Virus genome (UHGV): UHGV-0153103
Direction: 5' to 3' (one strand)
Length of the DNA stretch: 18,202 nt
DNA from: a virus
Both the position numbers and the translations under genes were made by a program. The notes beneath the pieces are model-generated. The model ran no database searches. It had not been told where the DNA came from and saw only the letters and a list, made by a program, of their open reading frames with translations. Positions 223-17,504 of the stretch are shown here, piece after piece. Position 1 is the first letter of the stretch, and the number at the start of each line of letters is the position of its first letter.

Positions 223-1575
<1,353 letters not shown>

Positions 1576-1625
1576 TCCCCACCTCAATCTCAGTAACCCA
1601 AAAACAAACTATTTTCCGTTTAAAA

Positions 1626-1639
1626 ACAATGGAGTTTGT
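1626..1639. promoter_or_regulatory. Operator OL3 (ACAATGGAGTTTGT)
   Basis: ACAA-N6-TTGT 14-mer upstream of PL. Confidence 0.7.
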
Positions 1640-1656
1640 TTTTTGCACCTCCATTT

Positions 1657-1670
1657 ACAATATTTCTTGT
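1657..1670. promoter_or_regulatory. Operator OL2 (ACAATATTTCTTGT)
   Basis: ACAA-N6-TTGT 14-mer. Confidence 0.75.
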
Positions 1671-1698
1671 TTACAACATACAATCTTTCTTGTAATTT
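1670..1698 (+). promoter_or_regulatory. Putative PL promoter (-35 TTTACA, 17-bp spacer, -10 TAATTT)
   Basis: Sigma70-like hexamers with 17-bp spacing overlapping OL1/OL2, about 40 bp upstream of nutL and 180 bp upstream of N. Confidence 0.45.
1680..1693. promoter_or_regulatory. Operator OL1 (ACAATCTTTCTTGT)
   Basis: ACAA-N6-TTGT 14-mer, 23 bp from OL2, overlapping the putative PL spacer. Confidence 0.75.
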
Positions 1699-1737
1699 TA
1701 AGCCATCAGCAGGACGCACTAACCACCATGAAGGTGA

Positions 1738-1768
1738 TGCTCTTAAAAATTTAGCCCTGAAGAAGGGC
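1738..1768 (+). promoter_or_regulatory. nutL: boxA-like TGCTCTTAA and boxB GCCCTGAAGAAGGGC
   Basis: boxB hairpin identical to lambda nutL boxB as recalled; surrounding sequence closely lambda-like. Confidence 0.8.
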
Positions 1769-1878
1769 AGCATTCAAAGCAGAAGGCTTTGAGTAGCGCG
1801 AAATGCAGCTGCAAGACAGCAACCGTGGAGATAAGCATCACGGCGCGTTACTCAAAGCTAACTGACAGGAGAATCCAG

Positions 1879-2205
1879 ATGGATGCACAAACACGCCGCC
1901 GCGAACGTCGCGCAGATAAACAGGCTCAATGGAAAGCAGCAAATCCCCTGTTGGTTGGGGTAAGCGCAAAACCAGTTAACCGCCCTATTCTCTCGCTGAA
2001 TCGCAAACCGAAATCACGAGTAGAAAGCGCACTGAATCCAATAGACCTTACAGTGCTGGCTGAATACCACGAACAGATTGAAAGCAACCTGCAACGTATT
2101 GAGCACAAGAATCAGCGCACATGGTACAGCAAGCCACGCAGTGAAATGGGTGTGACCTGTTCAGGCCGCCAGAAAATGAAATTAGGCAGCAAACCACTTA
2201 TTTGA
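1879..2205 (+). CDS. N: Antitermination protein N (lambda-type, arginine-rich motif)
   Basis: MDAQTRRRERRADKQAQWKAANPLLVGVSAKPVNRPILSLNRKPKSRVESALNPIDLTVLAEY... is near-identical to lambda N with scattered substitutions; preceded by GGAGAATCCAG-ATG as in lambda. Confidence 0.9.
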   Translation: MDAQTRRRERRADKQAQWKAANPLLVGVSAKPVNRPILSLNRKPKSRVESALNPIDLTVLAEYHEQIESNLQRIEHKNQRTWYSKPRSEMGVTCSGRQKMKLGSKPLI

Positions 2206-2216
2206 GAGGAATTAAT

Positions 2217-2840
2217 ATGTCATCAATCCGCTTAACTACGAGAATGAAAGAGGAAATCGCTCGTAACGCTTTAATTAAGTCTGGGGTTTTCACTGAACTT
2301 GAAGAAGTAACAAAGTTAAAGAACCAGCTTGCACTTGACGCCAGAGTTATTGCGTTTGGCGGTAAAAAGAAAACTGAGGAAGTGGATCAGTTATCATCCA
2401 AGTTAGTAGCTATAAGTGAAGAACTTGAAAAACTGGGATGTTCATTTTACTCATACGATGTTCGTTCTACATCAATTTATCTGACTGTATCTGGCAGAAG
2501 AGTTGGCTGGCATTCATACGGAAAAGACGGCAACGGTGAAGATATATTGCTCCCCACCCCAGAAGAAGATAAATGCATGTTTGACGCAGAACACGAAATA
2601 ACAAAAAGGTTTGATGAAATCTGCGCATTGCAACAAAAACTTGAAGCCAAGAAAAAGGATATCGAATCAAATGTATGGGCTGCTTTGAACTCATTCACAA
2701 CAGTTAAGCGACTTATTGAAGTTTGGCCTGAAAGCAAAGAGTTGCTACCAAAAGAAGCAGATAAAGCAAGTACAGCACTTCCTGCTTTACGGGTAGAAGA
2801 TTTGAATAAGATGATTGGACTTCCTTCCGAGGCCGCATAG
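2217..2840 (+). CDS. Hypothetical protein (207 aa) in the ral/sieB slot between N and cIII
   Basis: ATG at 2217 with GAGAGGA ribosome-binding site; protein-like composition; followed immediately by an intrinsic terminator; no family recognised. Confidence 0.65.
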   Translation: MSSIRLTTRMKEEIARNALIKSGVFTELEEVTKLKNQLALDARVIAFGGKKKTEEVDQLSSKLVAISEELEKLGCSFYSYDVRSTSIYLTVSGRRVGWHSYGKDGNGEDILLPTPEEDKCMFDAEHEITKRFDEICALQQKLEAKKKDIESNVWAALNSFTTVKRLIEVWPESKELLPKEADKASTALPALRVEDLNKMIGLPSEAA

Positions 2841-2855
2841 TCGGCCTTTATTTTT
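2830..2855 (+). terminator. Rho-independent terminator (tL1-like): stem AGGCCG/CGGCCT, loop CATAGT, then TTTATTTTT
   Basis: 6-bp GC-rich stem with the stop codon of the upstream gene in the loop, followed by a T-run. Confidence 0.7.
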
Positions 2856-3064
2856 GGCATAAACAACAGAATAAACACTGCACTGTGTATTCATTCCAAC
2901 GAGTGAATACACGGAGCAATGTCGCTCGTAACTAAACAGGAGCCGACTTGTTCTGATTATTGGAAATCTTCTTTGCCCTCCAGTGTGGGGGCTTTTTTAT
3001 ATGCATACCAATAACGCTTCACTCGAGGCGTTTTCGTTATGCAATCAAACAGAAGGAGCATCCT

Positions 3065-3235
3065 ATGCAACAGTTCGCTATTGCAGGGGCGGCATCGGTT
3101 CGCCCTTTCAACCCGATTTTATCGGTACAGCATTCACGAAAAAATATTTTAACCGGAGCAGACTTTAAACAACCAAGAATGAAAAGTTTGCTCGAAAAGC
3201 TTTGGGATATTTTGAAACAACAAGGCCGTCCATGA
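3065..3235 (+). CDS. cIII: CIII-like protein (56 aa; putative FtsH/HflB inhibitor)
   Basis: MQQFAIAG... N-terminus and ...KSLLEKLWDILKQQGRP resemble lambda CIII (MQYAIAG... ...LIDILNQPG) as recalled; AGGAG ribosome-binding site; position after N as in lambda. Confidence 0.5.
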   Translation: MQQFAIAGAASVRPFNPILSVQHSRKNILTGADFKQPRMKSLLEKLWDILKQQGRP

Positions 3236-3390
3236 GTTTTACGGATAACTGGTCAGACGAAGAATTCATTCGTCAGATGAAAGAATTAATCGGTAACGAA
3301 GGAGATATTCATGTCACTTGCAACCACAGTGAAGGAGAGCAAGTTACAGAGACGCATGTACACGCAGAAAGCTCTCTGGTATCGCCATAA
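3232..3390 (+). CDS. Small protein (52 aa) in the kil position, unknown function
   Basis: ATG overlaps the cIII-like stop (ATGA), as kil overlaps cIII in lambda; the sequence does not match lambda Kil as far as I can recall. Confidence 0.4.
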   Translation: MSFTDNWSDEEFIRQMKELIGNEGDIHVTCNHSEGEQVTETHVHAESSLVSP

Positions 3391-3489
3391 TGGCGACCGC
3401 GAAGGAATGCGGGTATGCCTTAATTTGTCCCGAGTCGAAGTATTAAATCAGCGTTATTTCCTTGGGCCGTGTCCATTCTGAGGTGAATT

Positions 3490-4197
3490 ATGGATTTGAA
3501 CAAATTCGATGAGCCATTCAGCCCTGAAGATATCGAATGGCGAATACAGCAAAGCGGTAAAACACGCGATGGCAAGGTGTGGGCTATGGTGCTGGCTTAT
3601 GTCACGAACCGGGCAATCATGAAGCGCCTGGACGATGTTTGCGGCAAAGCAGGATGGCGCAATGAATACCGCGATATTCCCAACAACGGCGGAGTTGAAT
3701 GCGGCATATCAATCAAGATTGATTCCGAATGGGTAACCAAATGGGATGCTGCTGAAAACACGCAGGTAGAAGCCGTCAAAGGCGGTCGTTCCGGTGCAAT
3801 GAAGCGCGCTGCCGTTCAGTGGGGAATCGGTCGGTATCTGTATAACCTTGAGGAAGGTTTTGCACAAACATCTCTCGATAAAAAGCAGGGATGGCACAGG
3901 GCAAAACTCAAGGATGGAACAGGATTTTACTGGCTCCCTCCATCGCTGCCGGGATGGGCAATCCCAGCATCAGATAACAAACCATCACCAGAAAATACCA
4001 ACCAGAAATCTCCATCGGTTGACTGCGAACAAATCCTGAAAGACTTCAGCGATTATGCGTCAACAGAAACTGACAAGAAAAAACTCATCGAGCGTTATCA
4101 GCGTGACTGGCAATTAATGGCTGGCAACGAGGAGGCGCAGGCTAAATGCGTTCAGGTAATGAACATCAGAGTTAACGAACTAAAACAGGCGGCATAA
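3490..4197 (+). CDS. Rad52-like single-strand annealing protein (Sak/Rad52 family)
   Basis: Motifs VWAMVLAYVTNRAIMKRLD and KGGRSGAMKRAAVQWGIGRYLY are typical of phage Rad52-type annealases; GAGGTGA ribosome-binding site; immediately followed by ssb. Confidence 0.65.
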   Translation: MDLNKFDEPFSPEDIEWRIQQSGKTRDGKVWAMVLAYVTNRAIMKRLDDVCGKAGWRNEYRDIPNNGGVECGISIKIDSEWVTKWDAAENTQVEAVKGGRSGAMKRAAVQWGIGRYLYNLEEGFAQTSLDKKQGWHRAKLKDGTGFYWLPPSLPGWAIPASDNKPSPENTNQKSPSVDCEQILKDFSDYASTETDKKKLIERYQRDWQLMAGNEEAQAKCVQVMNIRVNELKQAA

Positions 4198-4713
4198 ATG
4201 GCAAGCAGAGGCGTAAATAAGGTGATCATTATTGGTCGCCTTGGGCATGATCCAGAAATCAGATATTCACCATCAGGAACGGCATTTGCAAACCTTACCG
4301 TTGCTACGTCAGAACAATGGCGTGATAAGAAAACTGGAGAGCAAAAGGAGCAGACGGAGTGGCACCGCGTGGTAATGAGCGGGAAACTGGCAGAAATTGC
4401 CAGCGAATATCTGCGAAAAGGCTCTGAGGTTTATCTTGAAGGCAAATTGCGGACAAGAAAATGGCAGGATCAAAGCGGACAGGATCGGTTCACTACCGAA
4501 GTCATCGTGGGCGTTGGTGGAACCATGCAAATGCTTGGTGGCAAGCAAGGAGGCAATGAACAGTCTTCACCTCAGCGAAATAATGGTCAGCAACAAAGAC
4601 AGCAACCTCAGCAGCAGGGAAATCACAGCGAACCACCTATGGATTTTGACGACGATATCCCCTTTGCACCAGTAACTCTCCCCTTCCCTCGTCACGCTAT
4701 TCACGCAATTTAA
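4198..4713 (+). CDS. ssb: Single-stranded DNA-binding protein (OB fold, Gln/Gly-rich linker, acidic DDDIPF tail)
   Basis: [44 protein letters not shown]... and C-terminal ...MDFDDDIPF are hallmark SSB features; start abuts the upstream stop (TAAATG). Confidence 0.9.
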
Positions 4714-4721
4714 GGACTTAC

Positions 4722-5270
4722 ATGAATCACTTGATGGTTGACCTTGAAACAATGGGCAACGGGCCATACGCGCCAGTTATTTCTATTGGGGCGGTATTCT
4801 TTGACCCGAATACCGGAGAAACAGGAGAAGAGTTCTCGGTAAATATCTCGCTTGAATCATCAATGCGATATCGAGCGCGTCCTGACGCTTCAACGATTTT
4901 ATGGTGGCTGGAACAGAGTGAAGAAGCCAGAAAATCGCTAACCAGCAACACTCAGGAGCTTTCAACGGCTCTTTCATGGTTATCTGAATTCATCATAAAG
5001 AACGCTAACCACAAATTCGTTCAGGTTTGGGGGAATGGAGCATCATTTGACTGCGTTATTCTCCGAAACAGTTATTCGCTGACAGGGCAGCCAGTTCCGT
5101 GGCAGTGGTGGAATGACCGCGACGTAAGAACAATCGTCGAACTTGGGAAGGTAATAGGATTCGACCCTAAGCGAGATATGCCATTCAAAGGAACTCGCCA
5201 CAACGCGCTTGATGATGCCATTCACCAAGCCAAATACGTTTCAGAGATCTGGAAAAAGTTAGCTAAATAA
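4722..5270 (+). CDS. DnaQ-like 3'-5' exonuclease (DEDDh family)
   Basis: Exo motifs VDLETMG (D-x-E), WGNGASFDCVIL (D) and HNALDDAIHQAKY (H-x4-D); AAGGA ribosome-binding site; an alternative start at 4734 is possible. Confidence 0.7.
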   Translation: MNHLMVDLETMGNGPYAPVISIGAVFFDPNTGETGEEFSVNISLESSMRYRARPDASTILWWLEQSEEARKSLTSNTQELSTALSWLSEFIIKNANHKFVQVWGNGASFDCVILRNSYSLTGQPVPWQWWNDRDVRTIVELGKVIGFDPKRDMPFKGTRHNALDDAIHQAKYVSEIWKKLAK

Positions 5271-5286
5271 TCAACAGGAGAAAACC

Positions 5287-5580
5287 ATGCCAGCGCCTCT
5301 GTATGGTGCGGATGACGCGCGCCGCTGTTCCGGCAATTCCGTATCGGAGGTGCTGGATAAATTCAGAAAAAACTACGATCAGATAATGTCGCTACCGCAG
5401 GAAACGAAAGAGGAAAAGGAATTTCGCCATTGTATATGGCTTGCAGAGAAAGAAGAACTCGAGCGAATTTACCAGACATCAATCCGACCATTCCGCAAAG
5501 CCACATATACCCACTTCCCTGAAATTGACCCGCGCCTGCGTAATTACCGCTCACGCTATGGCGCTATCAGTAATGACTGA
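5287..5580 (+). CDS. Hypothetical protein (97 aa)
   Basis: AACAGGAGA ribosome-binding site, co-directional packing in the operon; no family recognised. Confidence 0.5.
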
Positions 5581-9149: not shown

Positions 9150-12100
9150 TTAATCCACTCCCACTTTTTTGTTGTACTCGCGGTTAAACCGATCCACGGC
9201 AACCTTCATATCCCGCTCTACCGATTTCACCATCGCCGCCTGCTGCGCCAGACTGAGAGAACTGTCGGCATAAATGGCATCGCGCTGTTTGCGCAAATCC
9301 TTCAGTCTCTTCCGGGTATCCTGCATAAGCCCGTTCATCAACAATTTTCCGTTGTTCTCGTCAATGAACGCCGTTCTTTCTGCACCGGTCAGACTCTTCA
9401 GCTCTGCGTGATACTGCGCAACCTCTGTCATCCGGTCGTACATCTTCTGCTGGTCTGCATACGGCATCACCTCACCCGAAATTTTCCCCAGGAAGGGCAC
9501 CTGCTGTTCCGGTATATCAATACCATTCAGCGATTTCACCGCCGCATCCGTGGTTTTGGAAATGAAGCGCCCTGTCCCTCCGGAGATATAGTCAATCCAG
9601 AATTTCAGCGATTCCGGTGTGATATCCACCGCGCCGGGACGATACTGGCTGCCACCTGAGAACGCATTCAGCCAGGATGCAAACGCCTTGTACGCTTCTG
9701 GCGTTGAACGTCTTCCCAGCTGGCTGTCAGGTTTTGGTGTACCAAACGGCATGTTCTCCTGGTAAATCTGCGCCCCCATGAAGTTTTCATTCATGGCAAG
9801 GTTCGCAAACGGACGCAGAATGGTCGGTGCTGCGTTTTTCAGCAATGCCCCCGACAACGTTTCCGACGTCTCGCTGCCGATCGGGCTGAATGCTCCCAGG
9901 ATACCGCCGACAACATTACCGGCAGCACGTGAAGCAGTCAGGTCGCCCGCTGCCACACCTTCAGCTGTATGACCAAGCAGGAAGAACACGTTGTACCCGT
10001 AAGGCAGAGGAATACTCCAGTACTCACCGGCCTTGCCCCCGAACATCGATTTCATGATGACGAGGTTACGCTCTTTCACATGAGACGGTACTTTGTCGTA
10101 CCAGTTAACCCCGTCATCATCCTCACCCGCCACACTGCGGTTAAGCGAGCCAAGCAGATAACCCGCTCCCACAGCTGCAAGCACGATTTTCTGCGGTACA
10201 TTGAGATTCTTCCAGCGAAGGCGCTCCAGTAACGGCCCGTCGCCATTAAGATGTCCGAGCGTTCTCACCAGGTTTGCGGTCCCCTGAATGCTGGCGTTGG
10301 CAAACATGTACAGCGAGTTCATCAGCATCCCCTGCTCACCACGACGGTTAAAGTTCACCGTCATGTTTTTGGCAAGAGACGCCGCCTGCTGGCGTGACAA
10401 ACCGGCATCACGGGCGTGTTTATAGGCAGAAAGACGCAGAGCGTTTTCAACCGCGCCGTTGGCATCCTCGACCAGGTTCAGGAACGAATGCCATGCACCG
10501 ATACTCTGGCCTTTCCATCCGCCCTTCGCCAGCGACACAAGGCGATCCATTTCCTTCTGCTGGCCCTCAAGGTCACCCATGTTAAACCAGCCGGTTTTAC
10601 CTCCGTCCTCAACAAACTCTTTCCACACTTTCTGCCACTGTGCGCCTTTGCCCGTGAGGGTTTTACCCCGCAGACTTGCGTATACGGCTGACATGGCGGA
10701 ACGGCTGTCTTTCACCACAGCCAGCGCGGATAAGTTATCCAGCCCTTTCAGTTTGCCGTCGCTTCTTCCCTGCTCAGCCTTCAGGTTCATCACCGCAGTC
10801 TGCACGTCACGGATGAAGTTACTGACCAGAAATTCCGGGTTATACGACGTGTTCACCGTTGCCAGGAAGCGGTTAACTTTCCCCAGCGTACGGATTACGG
10901 CGTTACTGGTTTCCGGCCCCATGTTCTTCATCGCACGCATCAGGCGCGGATCATGAAGTTTAATGTAGTAAGTTTTGCCGTCCTTTTTGGTGGTGAAGTA
11001 GCGATCCGCCATCATTGCCATCGGCACAGGGCGCTCGACAACTTCGCGAATGGTTTCACCAGTTTCCTGGTCCTTGCGCTCTGCAATCACACGCATTGTA
11101 TCCGGTCTGTCATCAGTGAATACCTGCCAGTAATCCTTGTCGGGATTATCCTGTACCAGTTTCAGGAAGGCGTTACCCACTTCATTTTTGCGATTGCGGA
11201 TCAGCGATTCACTCAAATCCTGTATCGCCTGAGTGGAAGGAGACTGTGCGCGGGATGCACGCCCCATGGCCTGCTTACTTTCACGCCCGCCGATGGTGAA
11301 TCCCTTGCCTGTACGTGGCAGTGACACCACACCGTCAACATCCTGCCCTTTCAGGGGGACGTAGTAACGGTAGGCTTTCTGCCAGGCATCCACCACGCCG
11401 CTCTCTTCCAGTCCTGCCTCACGGATAATCTCACGGCGACGGGCCAGCATATCGTCAATAATCCCTGCCAGACGGTCATACTGTGCCTGTTTGCCGCTGT
11501 TACGCACACGCTGCATGATTTCCGCCGCTTCCGCGTTGGTCATCCCCGAACCGCCGTCCGGCATTTTCGGGTTGATTTTCGCAATATGCGCGTTACGTTC
11601 CGGCGCGTGACGGGCGTAGAGGTACTCATCCAGATCGGCCTGCGCAATTTTGTAGTCCGCCAGCAATTTGGCCAGCGGCTGAACGTAGCGCTCCTTCATT
11701 ACGTTCAGGTCGTTTTCCGCCTTCCCGTGGAAGAGTTCTTCAGCCATATAGGCGTTATTGCTGTCATCTATTTTTCCGCCAGTTTTACGGATATTCTCCT
11801 GCACCGCCTTCAGCACCTGGAATTTATCCTGCATCTGGCGAACAAAACGGGATGCAATTGTCTCTTCCGGCGTCAGACTGCTGGTGCGGGAGTAATACGG
11901 CCCCTTGCGAATATCTTCAGGATAGAGTATTTTATCTACAGAGCCGCGATAAGAATGTTCCCCTTTGGGCAATTGAAGCCCTCTGTGCAGAAGGTTATCG
12001 CGGCTTAATTTTTTCTTCCGGTAAAGCGTTAATCCGGCTTTATCCAGACTATTTGCCTTATTCATTCCTCCTTCCGTACCGTAAACCGAAGCTACCTTGT

Positions 12101-15100
12101 TGATTTCCAGGCGCGACCGGACAGCCTTCATGTGTACCGCTGACACTACAGGATCACCATTTTTATCCATGGCATCAAGCAGCATCACAACCGCATTTCT
12201 TTCTGTCGCGGAACGGTAAATTGCATCCGGATCGTGCATCAGTTCCGGTAGTCTCTCGATAACATCCATCGGCACCACATGTTTCACTCCATTGGTGGCC
12301 TTACGCACAGTGTCGCGGGAGATAACCAGCGGCAAATCTGGTGCGCCAAGGTGACGCAATACCGGCGGCGTACGCCCGATGTTTACCGTTAAATCTGTGG
12401 TGCGCAGAGACTTCATCATTCTGGCAAGGTCATCACGATAACGCTCGCCCTCACCTTCCGGCACTTTGAACGGATCAGGCTTACCGCTACGGGAGTACTG
12501 AGACGATGCGTCCGCGCCATCCTCACGCGGCGTGTAACCTTCCCGCACACGCTGGCCTAACGTGCGAATAGTTTCGCGAACAAGTCTGATATCGTTCAGT
12601 TCCGTCGGCTTCAGTAACCCCGTACGACGCAGTACCCCTTTGACCAGGGCAACAACACGCTCCCATGCCGCCACGAATTTAATCGGCTGCTTCTCTGCCA
12701 TATGCGCCAGAAATTCACCCGCCTGCACTTCCGGTGATTCCTTACCATAAGACGCATCAACCTTACGCCAGGCTTCACGGATGGTGGCGTTATCACTGTC
12801 ACGGGTTTTCAGCACGGTCTTAATAATCGTCTGATATTCCGCTGGCGTGACTACATGCTCCATTGCATGGTGAATAATCTCGTGACGTAACTTCTCGCGA
12901 ACGGTCCGCCCGTCAGGGATGTTATCCGCCACCAGGACAATTTCACGTTTATCCGGACGATAGAACGCGTGCACCTTGCCGTAACCGTCGAATGATTCAC
13001 CCGCCAGTGCTTCAGCCTCTTTCTGTGACTTCACCACGCGGACCTTCAGGTCACTGTCCTTAATGCCACTAATCACGCCACGGGCAACAGCTTCAACCTG
13101 CGGGACCGGACTGCCTTTGGCTTCCGCACTGCGGTTAACATCCGAAATCAGATTGCCTTCAGGTGTGCGGGTCACGCCCTTACGGGAATAAAACGCAACT
13201 CCCTTGTCCGTCTCACGGGTTTTCAGTGTTCGGAACAAGTGATCGAATGCCTCACGAATACCGCCATCCAGTTCTGCATTCGTCGGATAAGCGTAGGTGT
13301 CCGGCTGTCCATGGTCATCCGCCTTACGGATATTGACCAGATAATCATTCTCCACGCCAGCCATACGCGCTTTATCCTGAACATAACGCTCAAAGGCTCG
13401 CGCCGCCATTTCAACATCCGTTGACCAGTACGGTTTTGAACGAACGCCATCCAGGCGTTCAGAACGACGCAACATGTCACTGCTGTTAATGGCTTTCATC
13501 ACGCCTTTAAACGCGTCGTAAACCTCCTGACGTACCGGATATTCCGCATCAACATACCTGCCGTCTTTAAATACGCGCCCGGCACGCTGTGCTTCCGTCA
13601 TATAGTCGCCACCTGACGTGATCTTCCCGTCAGTGGAAACATCATAACGACCAAAATAATTATCCAGTGAATGGAACCATTCGTGGGCCAGCGCCCCCGG
13701 TCCGTTACCTTTTGTCAGGTTGATTGCCACCTCACCCGGCTCATAGTGTGCCGCCGCCTTACCCTTACCACGGGCACCAAAAGCAAGCCCAAGACGACCG
13801 TTCAGAGAAAGCGCTTTTGTCGGCACGTTCAGCACGTCAGCCAGGTCATGCAGCGAGTCATAAGCCCGGTTCAAATCAGCCTGACGACGCGGACTTTCCA
13901 CATAATTACCAAACTGCACACCACGAAAACCAAACGCATCACTGAACTGCTCCGGCGAAACATCCCCCTTGCGGCGTTCTGGTCCGGTACGATCGCGGTT
14001 GGTGGCGTTACGCTGCTCCTCACGCGAGACTTCACGCAGCGCCTTCACCTGATTAACCAGCTCATCACGATGTGTGCGCACATAATCATGTGCATCACGG
14101 GCAGACTCAAAACCGCCCTTCAGTTTCTGCCTGTTTTTGCCATAACCGATAAAAATGTCGCCACTGGCCTTATGCCGGTACACGTCAAAGGTTATTCTGT
14201 CATCAGCAGAGGTTGCTGGCGTTTCCCTTTCTCTGGAGCCTTGTTCATCGAAATATGCTTTCGCCTTTTTCAGTAACTCATCCCGGCTTTCCGAGAAAAA
14301 GAGGTCGCGCCCCTTGCTATCACGAAGCGAATACATCATTTGCGGCGGATCGTAACGTTTTCCCCCGACAAACGAATAAACACCGGACCTGACACGATAG
14401 CCGGATGCTTTATCAATCTGCAATGCAGAAAGCGTACGGAGCAGTTTCCAGGTATCCGACATGCTCCGTAACCCCGGCTTACTGTCCATCATATCAGCCA
14501 GTTTCGCTGCCGGAATTTTCCCCTCCAGCATACCGGCAGTAGCTTCGCGACCGCTTTTAACAATGCTGATCCATTTCTGCATGTTACGGCTTGTTCTGGT
14601 GGGAATTTCACTGCGATACAACGCCATCATTGCCAGCGTGTCACTATCCACACCTTCTTTTTCCAGACGGGCATAATCCGGCTTTGGAAACAGTTTGCTC
14701 AGTGGTTGTGTCGCGTACTCCCCATCCTCCAGCGTTTTACCCATAGCTTCAGCAAGCTGCGCATAACGGTGTTTTGCCGCGCCCTTAATCTCCTCGCCAA
14801 AGTCTTCAATTTTCGCACCACGCGCCTGCTGGTGAGTGCTCGGTTTATCTACCGGCACCGGCACCTCAGTATCCGGAACATCGGTTATGGTCTGGCGATT
14901 ATCCCCGGTCTGTCTGCGTGCTTCTGCCTGCTGTGCCAGTTCCGGAAGGGAGTCACGAACCATACGAGGGAGTGATTCAGGCTGTGGCATATCAACCCCA
15001 CGCTGACTTTCAGGTGCAGGAAGACCTTCACGCACTGGTGCTGTGGCGTTCTGCTCATCCGGTGACGGCAGACCACGACGAACTGTTTCGCCCTCCAGTA

Positions 15101-17504
15101 TTTCCCCCTGGCGACCAGCGGCATTTTCCGGTGCCTGCGCACGTCCTTTCTGGAAACTCTGGCCCTTCACCTCACCGGTTGTGGTAAAACGACCACCACG
15201 TCCGGCCTGATTTTCATCCGGCGTACGCGCTACTTCTCCTGGTAACGGATATCCCTGTCCGGGATGAATATCGCCGGGAGCGGGAAGGCGTGGACGCTCA
15301 GTTAACTCCTGTGCTGTCGGACCGGCATCACCTTCAGCCATCTGGGAACGCACCAGTTCTTCCGCCGTCGGCGCGTTGCCACGAGCAAGACGGGCCTGCA
15401 CTTCTGTATCATCCCCCGTAAAACCACGGAATCGCGGGTCACGCATGAACGCGGGCTGTTCCATCGGATCAGCATCAGTAATACGCTCTCCGTCAGCCAG
15501 AGTGTTAATGGTCTCCGTTGCCACATCTTCAGAGAACGCAGGATTATCCATTTCAACGGCATACTGATTCTCGCCTTTCTTCACTACGGACGGTTTCAGG
15601 CCGGTGGCGCTGGCATTGCGGAAAACGTCGCTCCCCAGAGCACTTTTTTCATCCGTGAAATAACGGTTGTCCGGACGCACCTTTTCAATGCGTTCTGCTG
15701 GTCTGGACGCACCACTCTCGTTAATTTCAATACGAACTTCATCCGGATCGCGGAACCGCACCGTCGGGTAAATACTCCCGTCGCCATCATCCGCATTTTC
15801 CGGCTGTGGCTGTGCCTCCGGTCTGGCCTCCCGCTGAGGGCGAAGCACATCACGTATTGCCTGTAACTGCTGCTCTTCAGTATCAGTACGCCCTTCCTTC
15901 TGGCTGAGTTTTCGGTATTCCTCAAGCAGTTCAGGGCGCGGCTTCGCCTTCAGCTCATCCATCACCGCCTGTCGCTTCGCCTGTTCATCCAGTTCATTCA
16001 ACAGCTGGCTGGCGGCTTCCCGGCGATGAACGGCAGACGTGTCTCCCTCATGTGCCATATCCGCATCAGCATACTGTTCCAGAAGCTGCTCGCGATTCAT
16101 CCCCTGCATAGATTCACGATGCTGTGCCACCGGATCAACCGGTTCGGGTTGCGGAGCCGATTCGTCCTGAGGAACGCTTTCAGCCTCACGCATGGCTGCT
16201 TCATCTGCCGCCTGACGTTTTCCACGATATCCGGCAGCCGCACCGAATGGTGCCCCCATTGCAGCACCAAGGGCTGCACCTTCGATCGTTGCGTCAGCCA
16301 CGCCCTCCCACGGTGACACATCCATTCCGGCGGTCTCACGCAATGCCGTGTTTTCCTGATAGCGTGAATAGCCACCCTGCGCCGCATTAATCGTCCCCTG
16401 TTCCGTGGCATTTCTGACAATGCCGCTTTTAACGGTCTTCGCCGTGCCCCGCATCGCCAGATTAAGCAACTGAGCATCGCCCAGTTTTGCCGCCATGGCA
16501 TTCACAGCCAGCAATTCAGGATCGGTTGCCAGCTGCGCACGCACCTCATCGGCAACACGCTCTTTTGCCAGGTCCATTTTCTGGCGGTCAGTAAGCTGCG
16601 CGTGCTGCGGATCTGCATCAATTGACAAAAAGGTCTGCTGAAATTTCGGTGACTTCGCCAGCTCAGAATAATCCGCGTTAAGAACAGCATCTGCCGCTGC
16701 CATTGCACTCCGCCCTTGCGCACTGACAGTGGAATGGGTGATCAGGCCTGCCTGGAAAAAATCCGGCATTTTTTTATCGACAGCTTCGGCTGCCAGTGCT
16801 GTGGCTCTTTCCGGCTGCATCCCTGCCGCGATGTATTTTTTCTCCAGCCCGGCGGTCAGCACTTTTCGCAGAGTGACATCACCCAGCTTTTTAGTCACAC
16901 CGCCTGCAACCATATCCGGTACAAGCGCACCAATCAGGTTAACCCCTTTCGCTACCCAGACCGCTGAATCATCATATCCTTCAGTCATCGGTGTATTCAG
17001 CGCCCGCTGCGCCCCCGGCGACATCTTGCCAGTCAGCCATTCATCCGAGGCTTTAGCGCCGCCACTGACGGCCTTGCCTGTGACCTTCAGACCTTTACCG
17101 ACAGTATCAGTAACCGCATTTTTTCCATCAGGCAGAGTGTCGATGACCTCATCCGCCCCCTTGCTGCCACCGACAAAAATATCCTGAACAGTTGCGACTC
17201 CCGGCAGCCCCATACGGCTGAACTCATTTAAAATACGTACCCCTGTTTTTACCGGGCTCTGAATCATCGCATCACCGAGTCCACGGGCCATTTCCCCTGT
17301 CCCCCGGACGGACTGGGCGACACCTTTCCCCATAGTTGGCAATACATCGCCCAGGCTGAACGACGTGCTGTTGTCCTTCCAGCGATTGGGATCGGAGAAA
17401 AACACATCATAGCTGTCAGTCTCTCCCGGCTGCTGAATGTTCAGGCTGTTGCGGCTCTGGTTGCCAAATTGCGCTTCAGGGCGCTGTTCATCGGAATAAG
17501 CCAT
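9150..17504 (-). CDS. Giant multi-domain protein (2,784 aa) with two HExxH zincin-like motifs; candidate virion-delivered or polyvalent protein
   Basis: Uninterrupted 8.35-kb ORF; GGAG 6 nt upstream of the ATG at 17504; HEWFH at 13671..13685 (residue ~1274) and HEIIH at 12870..12884 (residue ~1541); Pro/Glu/Gln-rich region about residues 430-900; hydrophobic Gly/Ala-rich segments near the C-terminus (about 10050..10200); no P-loop seen. Confidence 0.85.
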   Translation of the reverse strand: MAYSDEQRPEAQFGNQSRNSLNIQQPGETDSYDVFFSDPNRWKDNSTSFSLGDVLPTMGKGVAQSVRGTGEMARGLGDAMIQSPVKTGVRILNEFSRMGLPGVATVQDIFVGGSKGADEVIDTLPDGKNAVTDTVGKGLKVTGKAVSGGAKASDEWLTGKMSPGAQRALNTPMTEGYDDSAVWVAKGVNLIGALVPDMVAGGVTKKLGDVTLRKVLTAGLEKKYIAAGMQPERATALAAEAVDKKMPDFFQAGLITHSTVSAQGRSAMAAADAVLNADYSELAKSPKFQQTFLSIDADPQHAQLTDRQKMDLAKERVADEVRAQLATDPELLAVNAMAAKLGDAQLLNLAMRGTAKTVKSGIVRNATEQGTINAAQGGYSRYQENTALRETAGMDVSPWEGVADATIEGAALGAAMGAPFGAAAGYRGKRQAADEAAMREAESVPQDESAPQPEPVDPVAQHRESMQGMNREQLLEQYADADMAHEGDTSAVHRREAASQLLNELDEQAKRQAVMDELKAKPRPELLEEYRKLSQKEGRTDTEEQQLQAIRDVLRPQREARPEAQPQPENADDGDGSIYPTVRFRDPDEVRIEINESGASRPAERIEKVRPDNRYFTDEKSALGSDVFRNASATGLKPSVVKKGENQYAVEMDNPAFSEDVATETINTLADGERITDADPMEQPAFMRDPRFRGFTGDDTEVQARLARGNAPTAEELVRSQMAEGDAGPTAQELTERPRLPAPGDIHPGQGYPLPGEVARTPDENQAGRGGRFTTTGEVKGQSFQKGRAQAPENAAGRQGEILEGETVRRGLPSPDEQNATAPVREGLPAPESQRGVDMPQPESLPRMVRDSLPELAQQAEARRQTGDNRQTITDVPDTEVPVPVDKPSTHQQARGAKIEDFGEEIKGAAKHRYAQLAEAMGKTLEDGEYATQPLSKLFPKPDYARLEKEGVDSDTLAMMALYRSEIPTRTSRNMQKWISIVKSGREATAGMLEGKIPAAKLADMMDSKPGLRSMSDTWKLLRTLSALQIDKASGYRVRSGVYSFVGGKRYDPPQMMYSLRDSKGRDLFFSESRDELLKKAKAYFDEQGSRERETPATSADDRITFDVYRHKASGDIFIGYGKNRQKLKGGFESARDAHDYVRTHRDELVNQVKALREVSREEQRNATNRDRTGPERRKGDVSPEQFSDAFGFRGVQFGNYVESPRRQADLNRAYDSLHDLADVLNVPTKALSLNGRLGLAFGARGKGKAAAHYEPGEVAINLTKGNGPGALAHEWFHSLDNYFGRYDVSTDGKITSGGDYMTEAQRAGRVFKDGRYVDAEYPVRQEVYDAFKGVMKAINSSDMLRRSERLDGVRSKPYWSTDVEMAARAFERYVQDKARMAGVENDYLVNIRKADDHGQPDTYAYPTNAELDGGIREAFDHLFRTLKTRETDKGVAFYSRKGVTRTPEGNLISDVNRSAEAKGSPVPQVEAVARGVISGIKDSDLKVRVVKSQKEAEALAGESFDGYGKVHAFYRPDKREIVLVADNIPDGRTVREKLRHEIIHHAMEHVVTPAEYQTIIKTVLKTRDSDNATIREAWRKVDASYGKESPEVQAGEFLAHMAEKQPIKFVAAWERVVALVKGVLRRTGLLKPTELNDIRLVRETIRTLGQRVREGYTPREDGADASSQYSRSGKPDPFKVPEGEGERYRDDLARMMKSLRTTDLTVNIGRTPPVLRHLGAPDLPLVISRDTVRKATNGVKHVVPMDVIERLPELMHDPDAIYRSATERNAVVMLLDAMDKNGDPVVSAVHMKAVRSRLEINKVASVYGTEGGMNKANSLDKAGLTLYRKKKLSRDNLLHRGLQLPKGEHSYRGSVDKILYPEDIRKGPYYSRTSSLTPEETIASRFVRQMQDKFQVLKAVQENIRKTGGKIDDSNNAYMAEELFHGKAENDLNVMKERYVQPLAKLLADYKIAQADLDEYLYARHAPERNAHIAKINPKMPDGGSGMTNAEAAEIMQRVRNSGKQAQYDRLAGIIDDMLARRREIIREAGLEESGVVDAWQKAYRYYVPLKGQDVDGVVSLPRTGKGFTIGGRESKQAMGRASRAQSPSTQAIQDLSESLIRNRKNEVGNAFLKLVQDNPDKDYWQVFTDDRPDTMRVIAERKDQETGETIREVVERPVPMAMMADRYFTTKKDGKTYYIKLHDPRLMRAMKNMGPETSNAVIRTLGKVNRFLATVNTSYNPEFLVSNFIRDVQTAVMNLKAEQGRSDGKLKGLDNLSALAVVKDSRSAMSAVYASLRGKTLTGKGAQWQKVWKEFVEDGGKTGWFNMGDLEGQQKEMDRLVSLAKGGWKGQSIGAWHSFLNLVEDANGAVENALRLSAYKHARDAGLSRQQAASLAKNMTVNFNRRGEQGMLMNSLYMFANASIQGTANLVRTLGHLNGDGPLLERLRWKNLNVPQKIVLAAVGAGYLLGSLNRSVAGEDDDGVNWYDKVPSHVKERNLVIMKSMFGGKAGEYWSIPLPYGYNVFFLLGHTAEGVAAGDLTASRAAGNVVGGILGAFSPIGSETSETLSGALLKNAAPTILRPFANLAMNENFMGAQIYQENMPFGTPKPDSQLGRRSTPEAYKAFASWLNAFSGGSQYRPGAVDITPESLKFWIDYISGGTGRFISKTTDAAVKSLNGIDIPEQQVPFLGKISGEVMPYADQQKMYDRMTEVAQYHAELKSLTGAERTAFIDENNGKLLMNGLMQDTRKRLKDLRKQRDAIYADSSLSLAQQAAMVKSVERDMKVAVDRFNREYNKKVGVD

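Follow-up and report, generated by a model that had tools for sequence, protein, structure and literature searches.

What does the gene that follows the antiterminator gene N do in a lambdoid phage, in the slot where lambda itself carries ral and sieB? The question is raised by an 18,202-nucleotide (nt) stretch of the virus genome UHGV-0153103 (hereafter the window), in which an earlier note, made from the letters only, had placed a gene of 207 amino acids (aa) between N and cIII. We find that this gene is real and conserved and that it belongs to the Pfam family Nmad5. We propose, at a probability of roughly 0.4, that its product may be an early accessory protein of counter-defence or host takeover, one that binds and does not catalyse, its target being either DNA or the DNA-handling or immune machinery of the host. 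The argument starts from the following features:

2217..2840, + strand, 207-aa Nmad5-family coding sequence (ATG 2217, TAG 2838-2840)
2206..2209, + strand, Shine-Dalgarno sequence GAGG, 7 nt 5' of the ATG, read from the sequence
1879..2205, + strand, lambda-type antiterminator gene N, adjoining upstream (Pfam PF11438 N36, E 1e-25)
1754-1768, nutL boxB of lambda, GCCCTGAAGAAGGGC, read from the sequence
3065..3235, + strand, cIII-like open reading frame (ORF), the downstream bound of the slot (from the ORF list, with spacing and position relative to HK542 and mEp235)

A conserved member of the Nmad5 family

The window covers the leftward early region of a lambdoid phage and is read along PL transcription. 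The ATG of the gene lies 11 nt beyond the N stop codon (TGA, 2203-2205), and the 225 nt between the gene and the cIII-like ORF equal the spacing to the annotated cIII of phage HK542; the cIII-like ORF, which has no Pfam match of its own, also takes the position of the annotated cIII in mEp235. Shuffling the surrounding 2 kb 300 times never produced a stop-free run of 207 codons, the ratio of nonsynonymous to synonymous substitution rates (dN/dS) lies at 0.15-0.28 when the gene is compared with its copies in HK542 and mEp235, i.e. the gene is under purifying selection, and the frame is intact in all 89 distinct related regions (207 aa in 87, 204 aa in two). The ORF is thus beyond chance, and the coordinates and description first given for it were correct. 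Across the same 89 regions the 5' junction, CTTATTTGAGAGGAATTAATATG, is identical save for one single-base variant, and the G+C content of the gene is 40% (33% at third codon positions) against 50% for the window. An antisense ORF of 133 codons at 2477-2878 was considered as a true gene and rejected: it is broken up in a 57%-identical Klebsiella homologue, and hence is taken to be a shadow ORF, while the sense frame is the one under purifying selection.

The earlier note had recognised no family, in which it was mistaken. Residues 4-203 match Pfam PF18757 (Nmad5) over all of its model positions, 1-206 of 206, with an E-value of 6.2e-71 and 239.1 bits against a cut-off of 27, and the protein also matches PHROG 1965 (E 1.9e-82). 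Near-identical proteins are named 'Nmad5 family putative nucleotide modification protein' by RefSeq in 221 of 5426 complete E. coli genomes, where nearly every case is a single chromosomal copy. Phages HK542, HK244 and mEp235 carry the same gene, as do many Shiga toxin (Stx)-converting phages, and proteins of 96-99% identity are already annotated in E. coli prophages as well as in the three named phages; family and protein are thus already known from public genomes. Literature searches on mEp235, HK542, HK244 and PhiR12 turned up no mention of the gene, nor did the papers on OLD and on the lambdoid Rec modules. As judged on alignments of 18 close and 66 diverse members, all conserved positions of the family are present in the window protein (R43, G48-G49, G93, G102, T162, L166, W170-P171-E172, L176, P178, L196-N197, G201 and P203). 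It shares with the family its length class, its motifs and the end-to-end match to the profile hidden Markov model (HMM), and the window copy does not depart from its many relatives.

Several other assignments were set aside. Weak Pfam matches to P4Ha_N, YfjL_C, DUF7201 and SKA2 fall below their cut-offs and on the long helices, and were treated as coiled-coil noise; besides this noise, a Pfam search at E up to 1 returned only Nmad5, with no similarity to Ral. The NCBIfam HMMs gave no match to the window protein. A lead from DefensePredictor, 'NMAD', was dropped since the domain in the validated defence system is Nmad2 and not Nmad5, and nothing supports the annotation 'Smchd1' in phage APC_JM3.2.

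The family comprises 868 cluster representatives at 50% identity, and among the best 150 of these nearly all are standalone proteins of 185-220 aa with an end-to-end match. It was seen in phages of Escherichia, Vibrio, Pseudomonas, Bordetella, Edwardsiella and an alphaproteobacterium, and is present in the strictly virulent genera Dhillonvirus, Yuavirus and Ithacavirus. The IMG/VR scan was run with a distant member as first sequence, as a first scan gave only near-identical E. coli copies. A plasmid leading-region anti-defence gene was also considered and rejected: only 6 of 72,556 plasmid records carry a family member, all of them phage-sized and non-mobilizable. The family is essentially confined to phages and prophages.

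The window protein is of about 23 kDa and mildly acidic, with an isoelectric point (pI) of 5.5. It has no membrane segment (maximum 19-residue Kyte-Doolittle value 0.53) and is predicted to be soluble. An AlphaFold2 model built on the 18-sequence alignment has a mean predicted local distance difference test score (pLDDT) of 84 and a predicted template modelling score of 0.70, and shows, in order, three long helices that take up residues 8-72, a beta hairpin at 86-100, another long helix at 127-158 and, at 163-200, a small C-terminal helical module that carries the motifs T162..L166..W170-P171-E172..P178 and L196-N197..G201..P203. Among the 66 diverse members invariance is confined to G48, P178 and N197, and I14, A18, G23, R43, G49, G93, G102, T162, L166, W170, P171, E172, L176, L196, G201 and P203 are near-invariant. 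As this set consists mostly of glycine, proline, tryptophan and leucine plus R43 and E172, it has the appearance of a structural or binding pattern rather than a catalytic one, and no catalytic residue set is conserved among the 66. The conserved core is formed by the C-terminal 85-100 residues, the sole part in common with the Dhillonvirus and Yuavirus proteins, and its best-conserved stretch is T162-x-K-R-L-I-E-x-W-P-E. The profile and structure searches proposed in the earlier note gave a divided answer: profiles led to the Nmad5 family, while comparison of the 18- and 66-member profiles with the PDB gave nothing meaningful and the predicted model found no counterpart among solved folds, the long helices dominating these searches.

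The slot after N and its hairpins

Homology to lambda resumes at window position 2837, which corresponds to lambda 34088 and to the ral stop codon. It follows that the cassette stands in for lambda sieB-orf28-ral over the interval between the stop codon of N and the hairpin, and the assignment to the ral/sieB region of lambda was exact, down to the same hairpin flank. Like ral, the window gene is an early-left accessory gene that ends at this flank; unlike Ral, to which it has no sequence similarity, its product is three times as large. The two are not simple alternatives, because in 13 related loci they stand in tandem, in the order N, ral, hairpin, Nmad5, hairpin, cIII, with ral as a separate 66-aa ORF directly upstream; they are therefore not alleles that could be swapped for one and the same function. 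Restriction alleviation, which the earlier note had raised, would be a candidate role for a gene found alongside ral and not solely in its stead. Lambda SieB and HK022 Nun are likewise encoded between N and cIII, and in mEp235 the Nmad5 gene comes after a Nun homologue. There is no similarity to either, and the window gene differs from them in showing no membrane segment or promoter of its own and in belonging to a family that is common in virulent phages. By position it is therefore an analogue of lambda ral and sieB and of HK022 nun, and not a member of those families.

More distant temperate homologues (46-58% identity; Klebsiella, Pantoea and Providencia) likewise open the leftward operon, either directly behind the repressor or with one gene in between. 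In Klebsiella prophages the gene lies directly behind a PL-like promoter with no N gene and, unlike in the window, with no terminator behind it. The gene behaves as a discrete, self-contained, low-GC mosaic cassette. In the tandem loci (L115, L161, L019 and ten others; IMG/VR E. coli prophages) the hairpin 3' arm plus T-run, GGCCTTTATTTT, is found on both sides of the cassette, and the cassette 5' junction CTTATTTGA, at the end of N, resembles that T-run. These matching letters suggest that cassette shuffling may be guided by microhomology.

Three terminator-like elements, all of them predicted, lie between the last codons of the gene and cIII, the first of them overlapping the end of the coding sequence:

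2829..2855, + strand, hairpin GAGGCCG-CATAGT-CGGCCTT followed by TATTTTT (consensus scan and minimum free energy fold)
2975..2998, + strand, second hairpin GCCCTCCAGTGTGGGGGC followed by TTTTTT, between the gene and cIII (consensus scan)
3013-3040, further terminator-like site before cIII (consensus scan)

The first hairpin has a stem of seven pairs, five of them G-C (G2829-G2835 with C2842-T2848), a 6-nt loop (2836-2841) that holds the TAG stop codon, and a T-run reaching to 2855. Its 3' arm and T-run belong to the flank common to lambda, mEp234 and mEpX1, and its 5' arm lies in the final codons of the gene that fills the slot. That gene is ral in lambda and Nmad5 in HK542 and mEp235; mEp234 has a gene of 84 aa there, and mEpX1, like E. 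coli CP53, one of 60 aa. A hairpin thus forms behind four different upstream genes, each with a different 5' arm. The equivalent site is annotated as a rho-independent terminator by the depositors of mEp234, and a 52%-identical Pantoea homologue has a different stem and T-run at the same place. The terminator reported directly after the gene therefore exists as a hairpin, according to the scan, the fold and the mEp234 annotation, and its termination activity is a prediction. For the corresponding lambda site, immediately 3' of ral, no terminator with experimental support is known to us.

Like the intrinsic terminators of the lambda leftward operon, the first hairpin combines a G+C-rich stem with a T-run; unlike them it is modest, at about -13 kcal/mol for a 56-nt segment (z = -1.1 against shuffles). 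Its 33-nt segment is altered in 43 of 87 close relatives, many of the changes falling in the stem and others in the loop or T-run, and among these 87 no clean compensatory changes were seen. No terminator-like site was found 3' of the gene in the Klebsiella and Providencia homologues. Sites equivalent to the second hairpin are annotated as rho-independent terminators in mEp234 and mEpX1; it corresponds to about lambda 33950-33927, the position of tL2a on the lambda map.

The consensus scan gave no terminator-like site between PL and 2829. On this basis the gene is probably transcribed from PL together with N, and as there is no such site from PL to the end of the gene, its N-independent transcription in this phage is plausible. 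The idea that the gene is expressed at once from PL thus holds as a plausible reading for the window and fails as a general one, given the 13 loci in which ral and a hairpin precede it.

A further hairpin was observed at 2883-2914 (+ strand), between the gene and cIII. It is strong, with 14 pairs (CTGTGTATTCATTC-CAAC-GAGTGAATACACGG), has no T-run, and is identical in lambda (just 3' of ral), mEp234, mEpX1 and HK542. It matched no Rfam family, and an Rfam search of the whole window gave no family at gathering score. This hairpin might be an RNA processing or stability element.

A proposed binding protein directed at the host, and its rivals

In Stx2a phages of O157 an IS3-family element splits the Nmad5 gene at about codon 33. 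At this locus (L017, 1238-2451; Stx2_13518 and many sister records) the element carries transposase ORFs of 108 aa and 296 aa, and the split gene leaves a 152-aa C-terminal ORF with a GTG start. Deletion of Nmad5 from the Dhillonvirus SM_S22 was viable (PMC11846954), and the gene of the virulent phage is thus non-essential like its lambdoid counterpart. The gene is therefore dispensable yet maintained, with a dN/dS of about 0.2 and 89 of 89 frames intact. The Dhillonvirus protein (SM_S22 CDS6, SM_A8 CDS7) is homologous to the window protein over the C-terminal 100 residues (34%, E 5e-14). It differs in having an unrelated and longer N-terminal part (254 aa, as annotated in SM_A8), and its gene stands alone, on the opposite strand, within the head module of a virulent phage. 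It could not be cloned and is apparently toxic, and a single substitution in it, K216E in SM_A8 and K296E in SM_S22, brings about escape from the Tmn defence (PMC11846954). In the alignment, K216 of SM_A8 falls on R165 of the window protein, within the conserved block ahead of W-P-E, which by analogy points to K216/R165 as a possible mark of an interaction surface relevant to the host defence response.

We accordingly favour, in the tentative terms given above, a protein that would act by binding and not by catalysis. It would dock through the C-terminal module (T162-x-K-R165-L-I-E-x-W-P-E ... L-P-A ... D-L-N ... G-L-P), with the few conserved basic residues R5, R43 and K164/R165 perhaps assisting. 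Its partner could be DNA itself or else a host component involved in DNA handling or defence; since the family spans phages of diverse hosts, such a partner would have to be common to many Proteobacteria and conserved among them. Early in infection the protein would alter how the cell treats incoming or replicating phage DNA, a role that would be helpful but dispensable, with an excess probably harmful to the cell, and it would not itself modify nucleotides in this phage.

A number of observations weigh against this proposal. Deleting the Dhillonvirus gene left Tmn sensitivity unchanged (PMC11846954), so that the wild-type protein is not clearly either a trigger or an inhibitor. The sole functional data come from a homologue with 34% identity, over the C-terminal half only. 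The mild acidity of the protein does not favour general DNA binding, and its last 25 residues, the C-terminal tail, are poorly modelled (pLDDT 48-59). The PADLOC HMMs gave no match to the window protein, PADLOC covering defence and not anti-defence proteins. Finally, copies in virulent phages lie in replication and nucleotide-metabolism modules, and a role in phage replication fits these at least as well.

A bolder form of the proposal, which we regard as possible and decidedly doubtful, is that Nmad5 is a misnomer for a widespread non-enzymatic early effector, whose W-P-E/D-L-N-x-x-I-G-L-P module would bind a conserved bacterial DNA-metabolism or immune component and in which the charge carried by residue 165 (R165) would determine if the Tmn NTPase and similar defences are triggered. 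If true, the lambdoid slot after N would be a two-gene counter-defence locus made up of ral and Nmad5. The gene is common, being present in about 4% of complete E. coli genomes, in many Stx-converting phages and in 868 clusters across phages of Proteobacteria, and the role of the family bears on the engineering of phages against bacterial defences. A classical anti-restriction slot in tractable phages (HK542 and mEp235), together with an escape residue in a conserved block, offers a cheap and direct route to that role.

The replication role just mentioned is the strongest rival, and we consider it a real if doubtful possibility. The protein would here be an accessory or adaptor for the phage's own replication or recombination, loading or bridging exonuclease, ssDNA-binding and annealing proteins, or coupling nucleotide supply to the replisome. 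The family members of 171 loci fell into 19 clusters at 60% identity, and three genes on either side were surveyed at 15 representative loci, giving 90 neighbours. Besides helix-turn-helix repressors (5), the commonest functional neighbours were PD-(D/E)XK nucleases (PDDEXK_1 4, DUF2800 3, DUF3799 1, YqaJ 1), Enc34-type ssDNA-binding proteins (3), Sak4-like AAA_24 ATPases (3), VapE primase-helicases (2), family A DNA polymerases (2) and ThyX (1). The gene of the N4-like phage FSL SP-058 lies in a replication module, between ThyX and an exonuclease, that of Yuavirus (M6-like) is close to a DNA polymerase and lies between aGPT-Pplase1 and a thymidylate-synthase-like gene, with a kinase flanking, and in the window a recombination module begins some 650 nt downstream:

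3490-4197, + strand, Rad52/22-type annealase (Pfam)
4198-4713, + strand, single-stranded DNA-binding protein, SSB (Pfam)
4722-5270, + strand, Rv2179c-like 3'-5' exonuclease (Pfam)
5287-5580, + strand, Abc2 anti-RecBCD protein (Pfam)

Abc1 was not recognised among the ORFs scanned in this module (3490-5580), and the window also encodes Ea22-like and DUF551 proteins. Against a replication adaptor, the lambdoid cassette is freely combined with unrelated recombination modules. It goes with Rad52-type recombinases in the window and mEp235 and with Erf-type ones in HK542 and Br_167, and in Klebsiella none could be recognised beside it, which makes a single phage-encoded partner unlikely. Terminators, cIII and kil separate the gene from the recombination module, the Dhillonvirus gene is isolated on the opposite strand among head genes, and the gene is dispensable.

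The name of the family invites a second alternative, namely a helper in nucleotide or base modification such as a specificity or scaffolding subunit for modifying enzymes, which we judge improbable. The family was named for its adjacency to thymidine-hypermodification genes, and the Yuavirus context described above, with aGPT-Pplase1, kinase and thymidylate-synthase-like gene, is the only one that has the modification-gene neighbourhood behind the name; in FSL SP-058 the gene does come after ThyX. The 90 neighbours included no aGPT-Pplase and no 5-hmdU kinase, and the name-giving genes (aGPT-Pplase, 5-hmdU kinase, thymidylate-synthase-like) are absent from the window and from most sampled contexts. 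No modification enzyme was found by Pfam among the window proteins scanned, nor near the gene in the complete HK542 genome, whose only exceptions, two glycosyltransferase genes, lie at a distance, in the late region. Conserved catalytic residues are missing, and the M6 thymidine hypermodification was rebuilt in vitro from purified gp51-gp54 in an account that, in the portion available to us, does not mention the Nmad5 gene (PMC8989533). With modification genes missing from the window, from HK542 and from the 90 neighbours, the term 'nucleotide modification' amounts to guilt by association derived from the gene neighbourhood of one phage group. It is unfit for most contexts and does not describe the lambdoid gene, and the family name is probably misleading. 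The missing neighbourhood concerns the name and not the homology, and membership of Nmad5 by sequence therefore stands. In HK542 (L010, 36330-38239) the two glycosyltransferase genes have an HNH endonuclease beside them and follow the lysis genes at the record's right end.

A regulator of early-operon transcription or expression, i.e. a second antitermination, processing or timing factor, seems very improbable. The gene is the first after the repressor and PL-like promoter in the N-less Klebsiella prophages and follows N directly in the window, among terminator-like hairpins. Set against this, the protein contains neither an arginine-rich nor a helix-turn-helix motif and does not resemble N, Q, Nun or known regulators, and the family occurs widely among virulent phages whose transcription strategies differ, the N4-like phage included. 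Least probable of all is the superinfection exclusion raised in the earlier note, a SieB-, Nun- or Rex-like function protecting the lysogen, since, for all that sieB of lambda and nun of HK022-type phages occupy this slot, the PL operon is shut off by repressor in lysogens, no sigma-70-like promoter was found at 1500-3600 (by a strict scan that stayed blank though this range should include PL), the protein has neither a membrane segment nor a PADLOC match and is modelled as soluble and helical, and the family is conserved in strictly virulent genera.

Immunity region and origin of the window

The phage mixes a 434-type immunity region (223-1174) with lambda-type N (1879-2205) and nutL. Both cI, at 542-1174, and cro, on the other strand, are of the type found in phage 434. 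In HK542, which has lambda immunity, homology to the window starts only at about 1699, at the edge of PL.

An ORF of 134-158 aa (1099/1171-1575, + strand) with a hydrophobic, signal-peptide-like N-terminus and no Pfam match lies where lambda has rexAB, between cI and PL. It could be a moron expressed in the lysogen.

On the minus strand, 9150-17504 forms a single ORF of 2784 aa with Pfam domains LPD38, LPD5, LPD1 and MuF_C, a 'large polyvalent protein'. The region is 94-95% identical to more than 180 records of Stx-converting (933W-like, Sepvirinae) phages, of which this is the known giant ORF, and the match suggests that the window may derive from a phage or prophage of that group.

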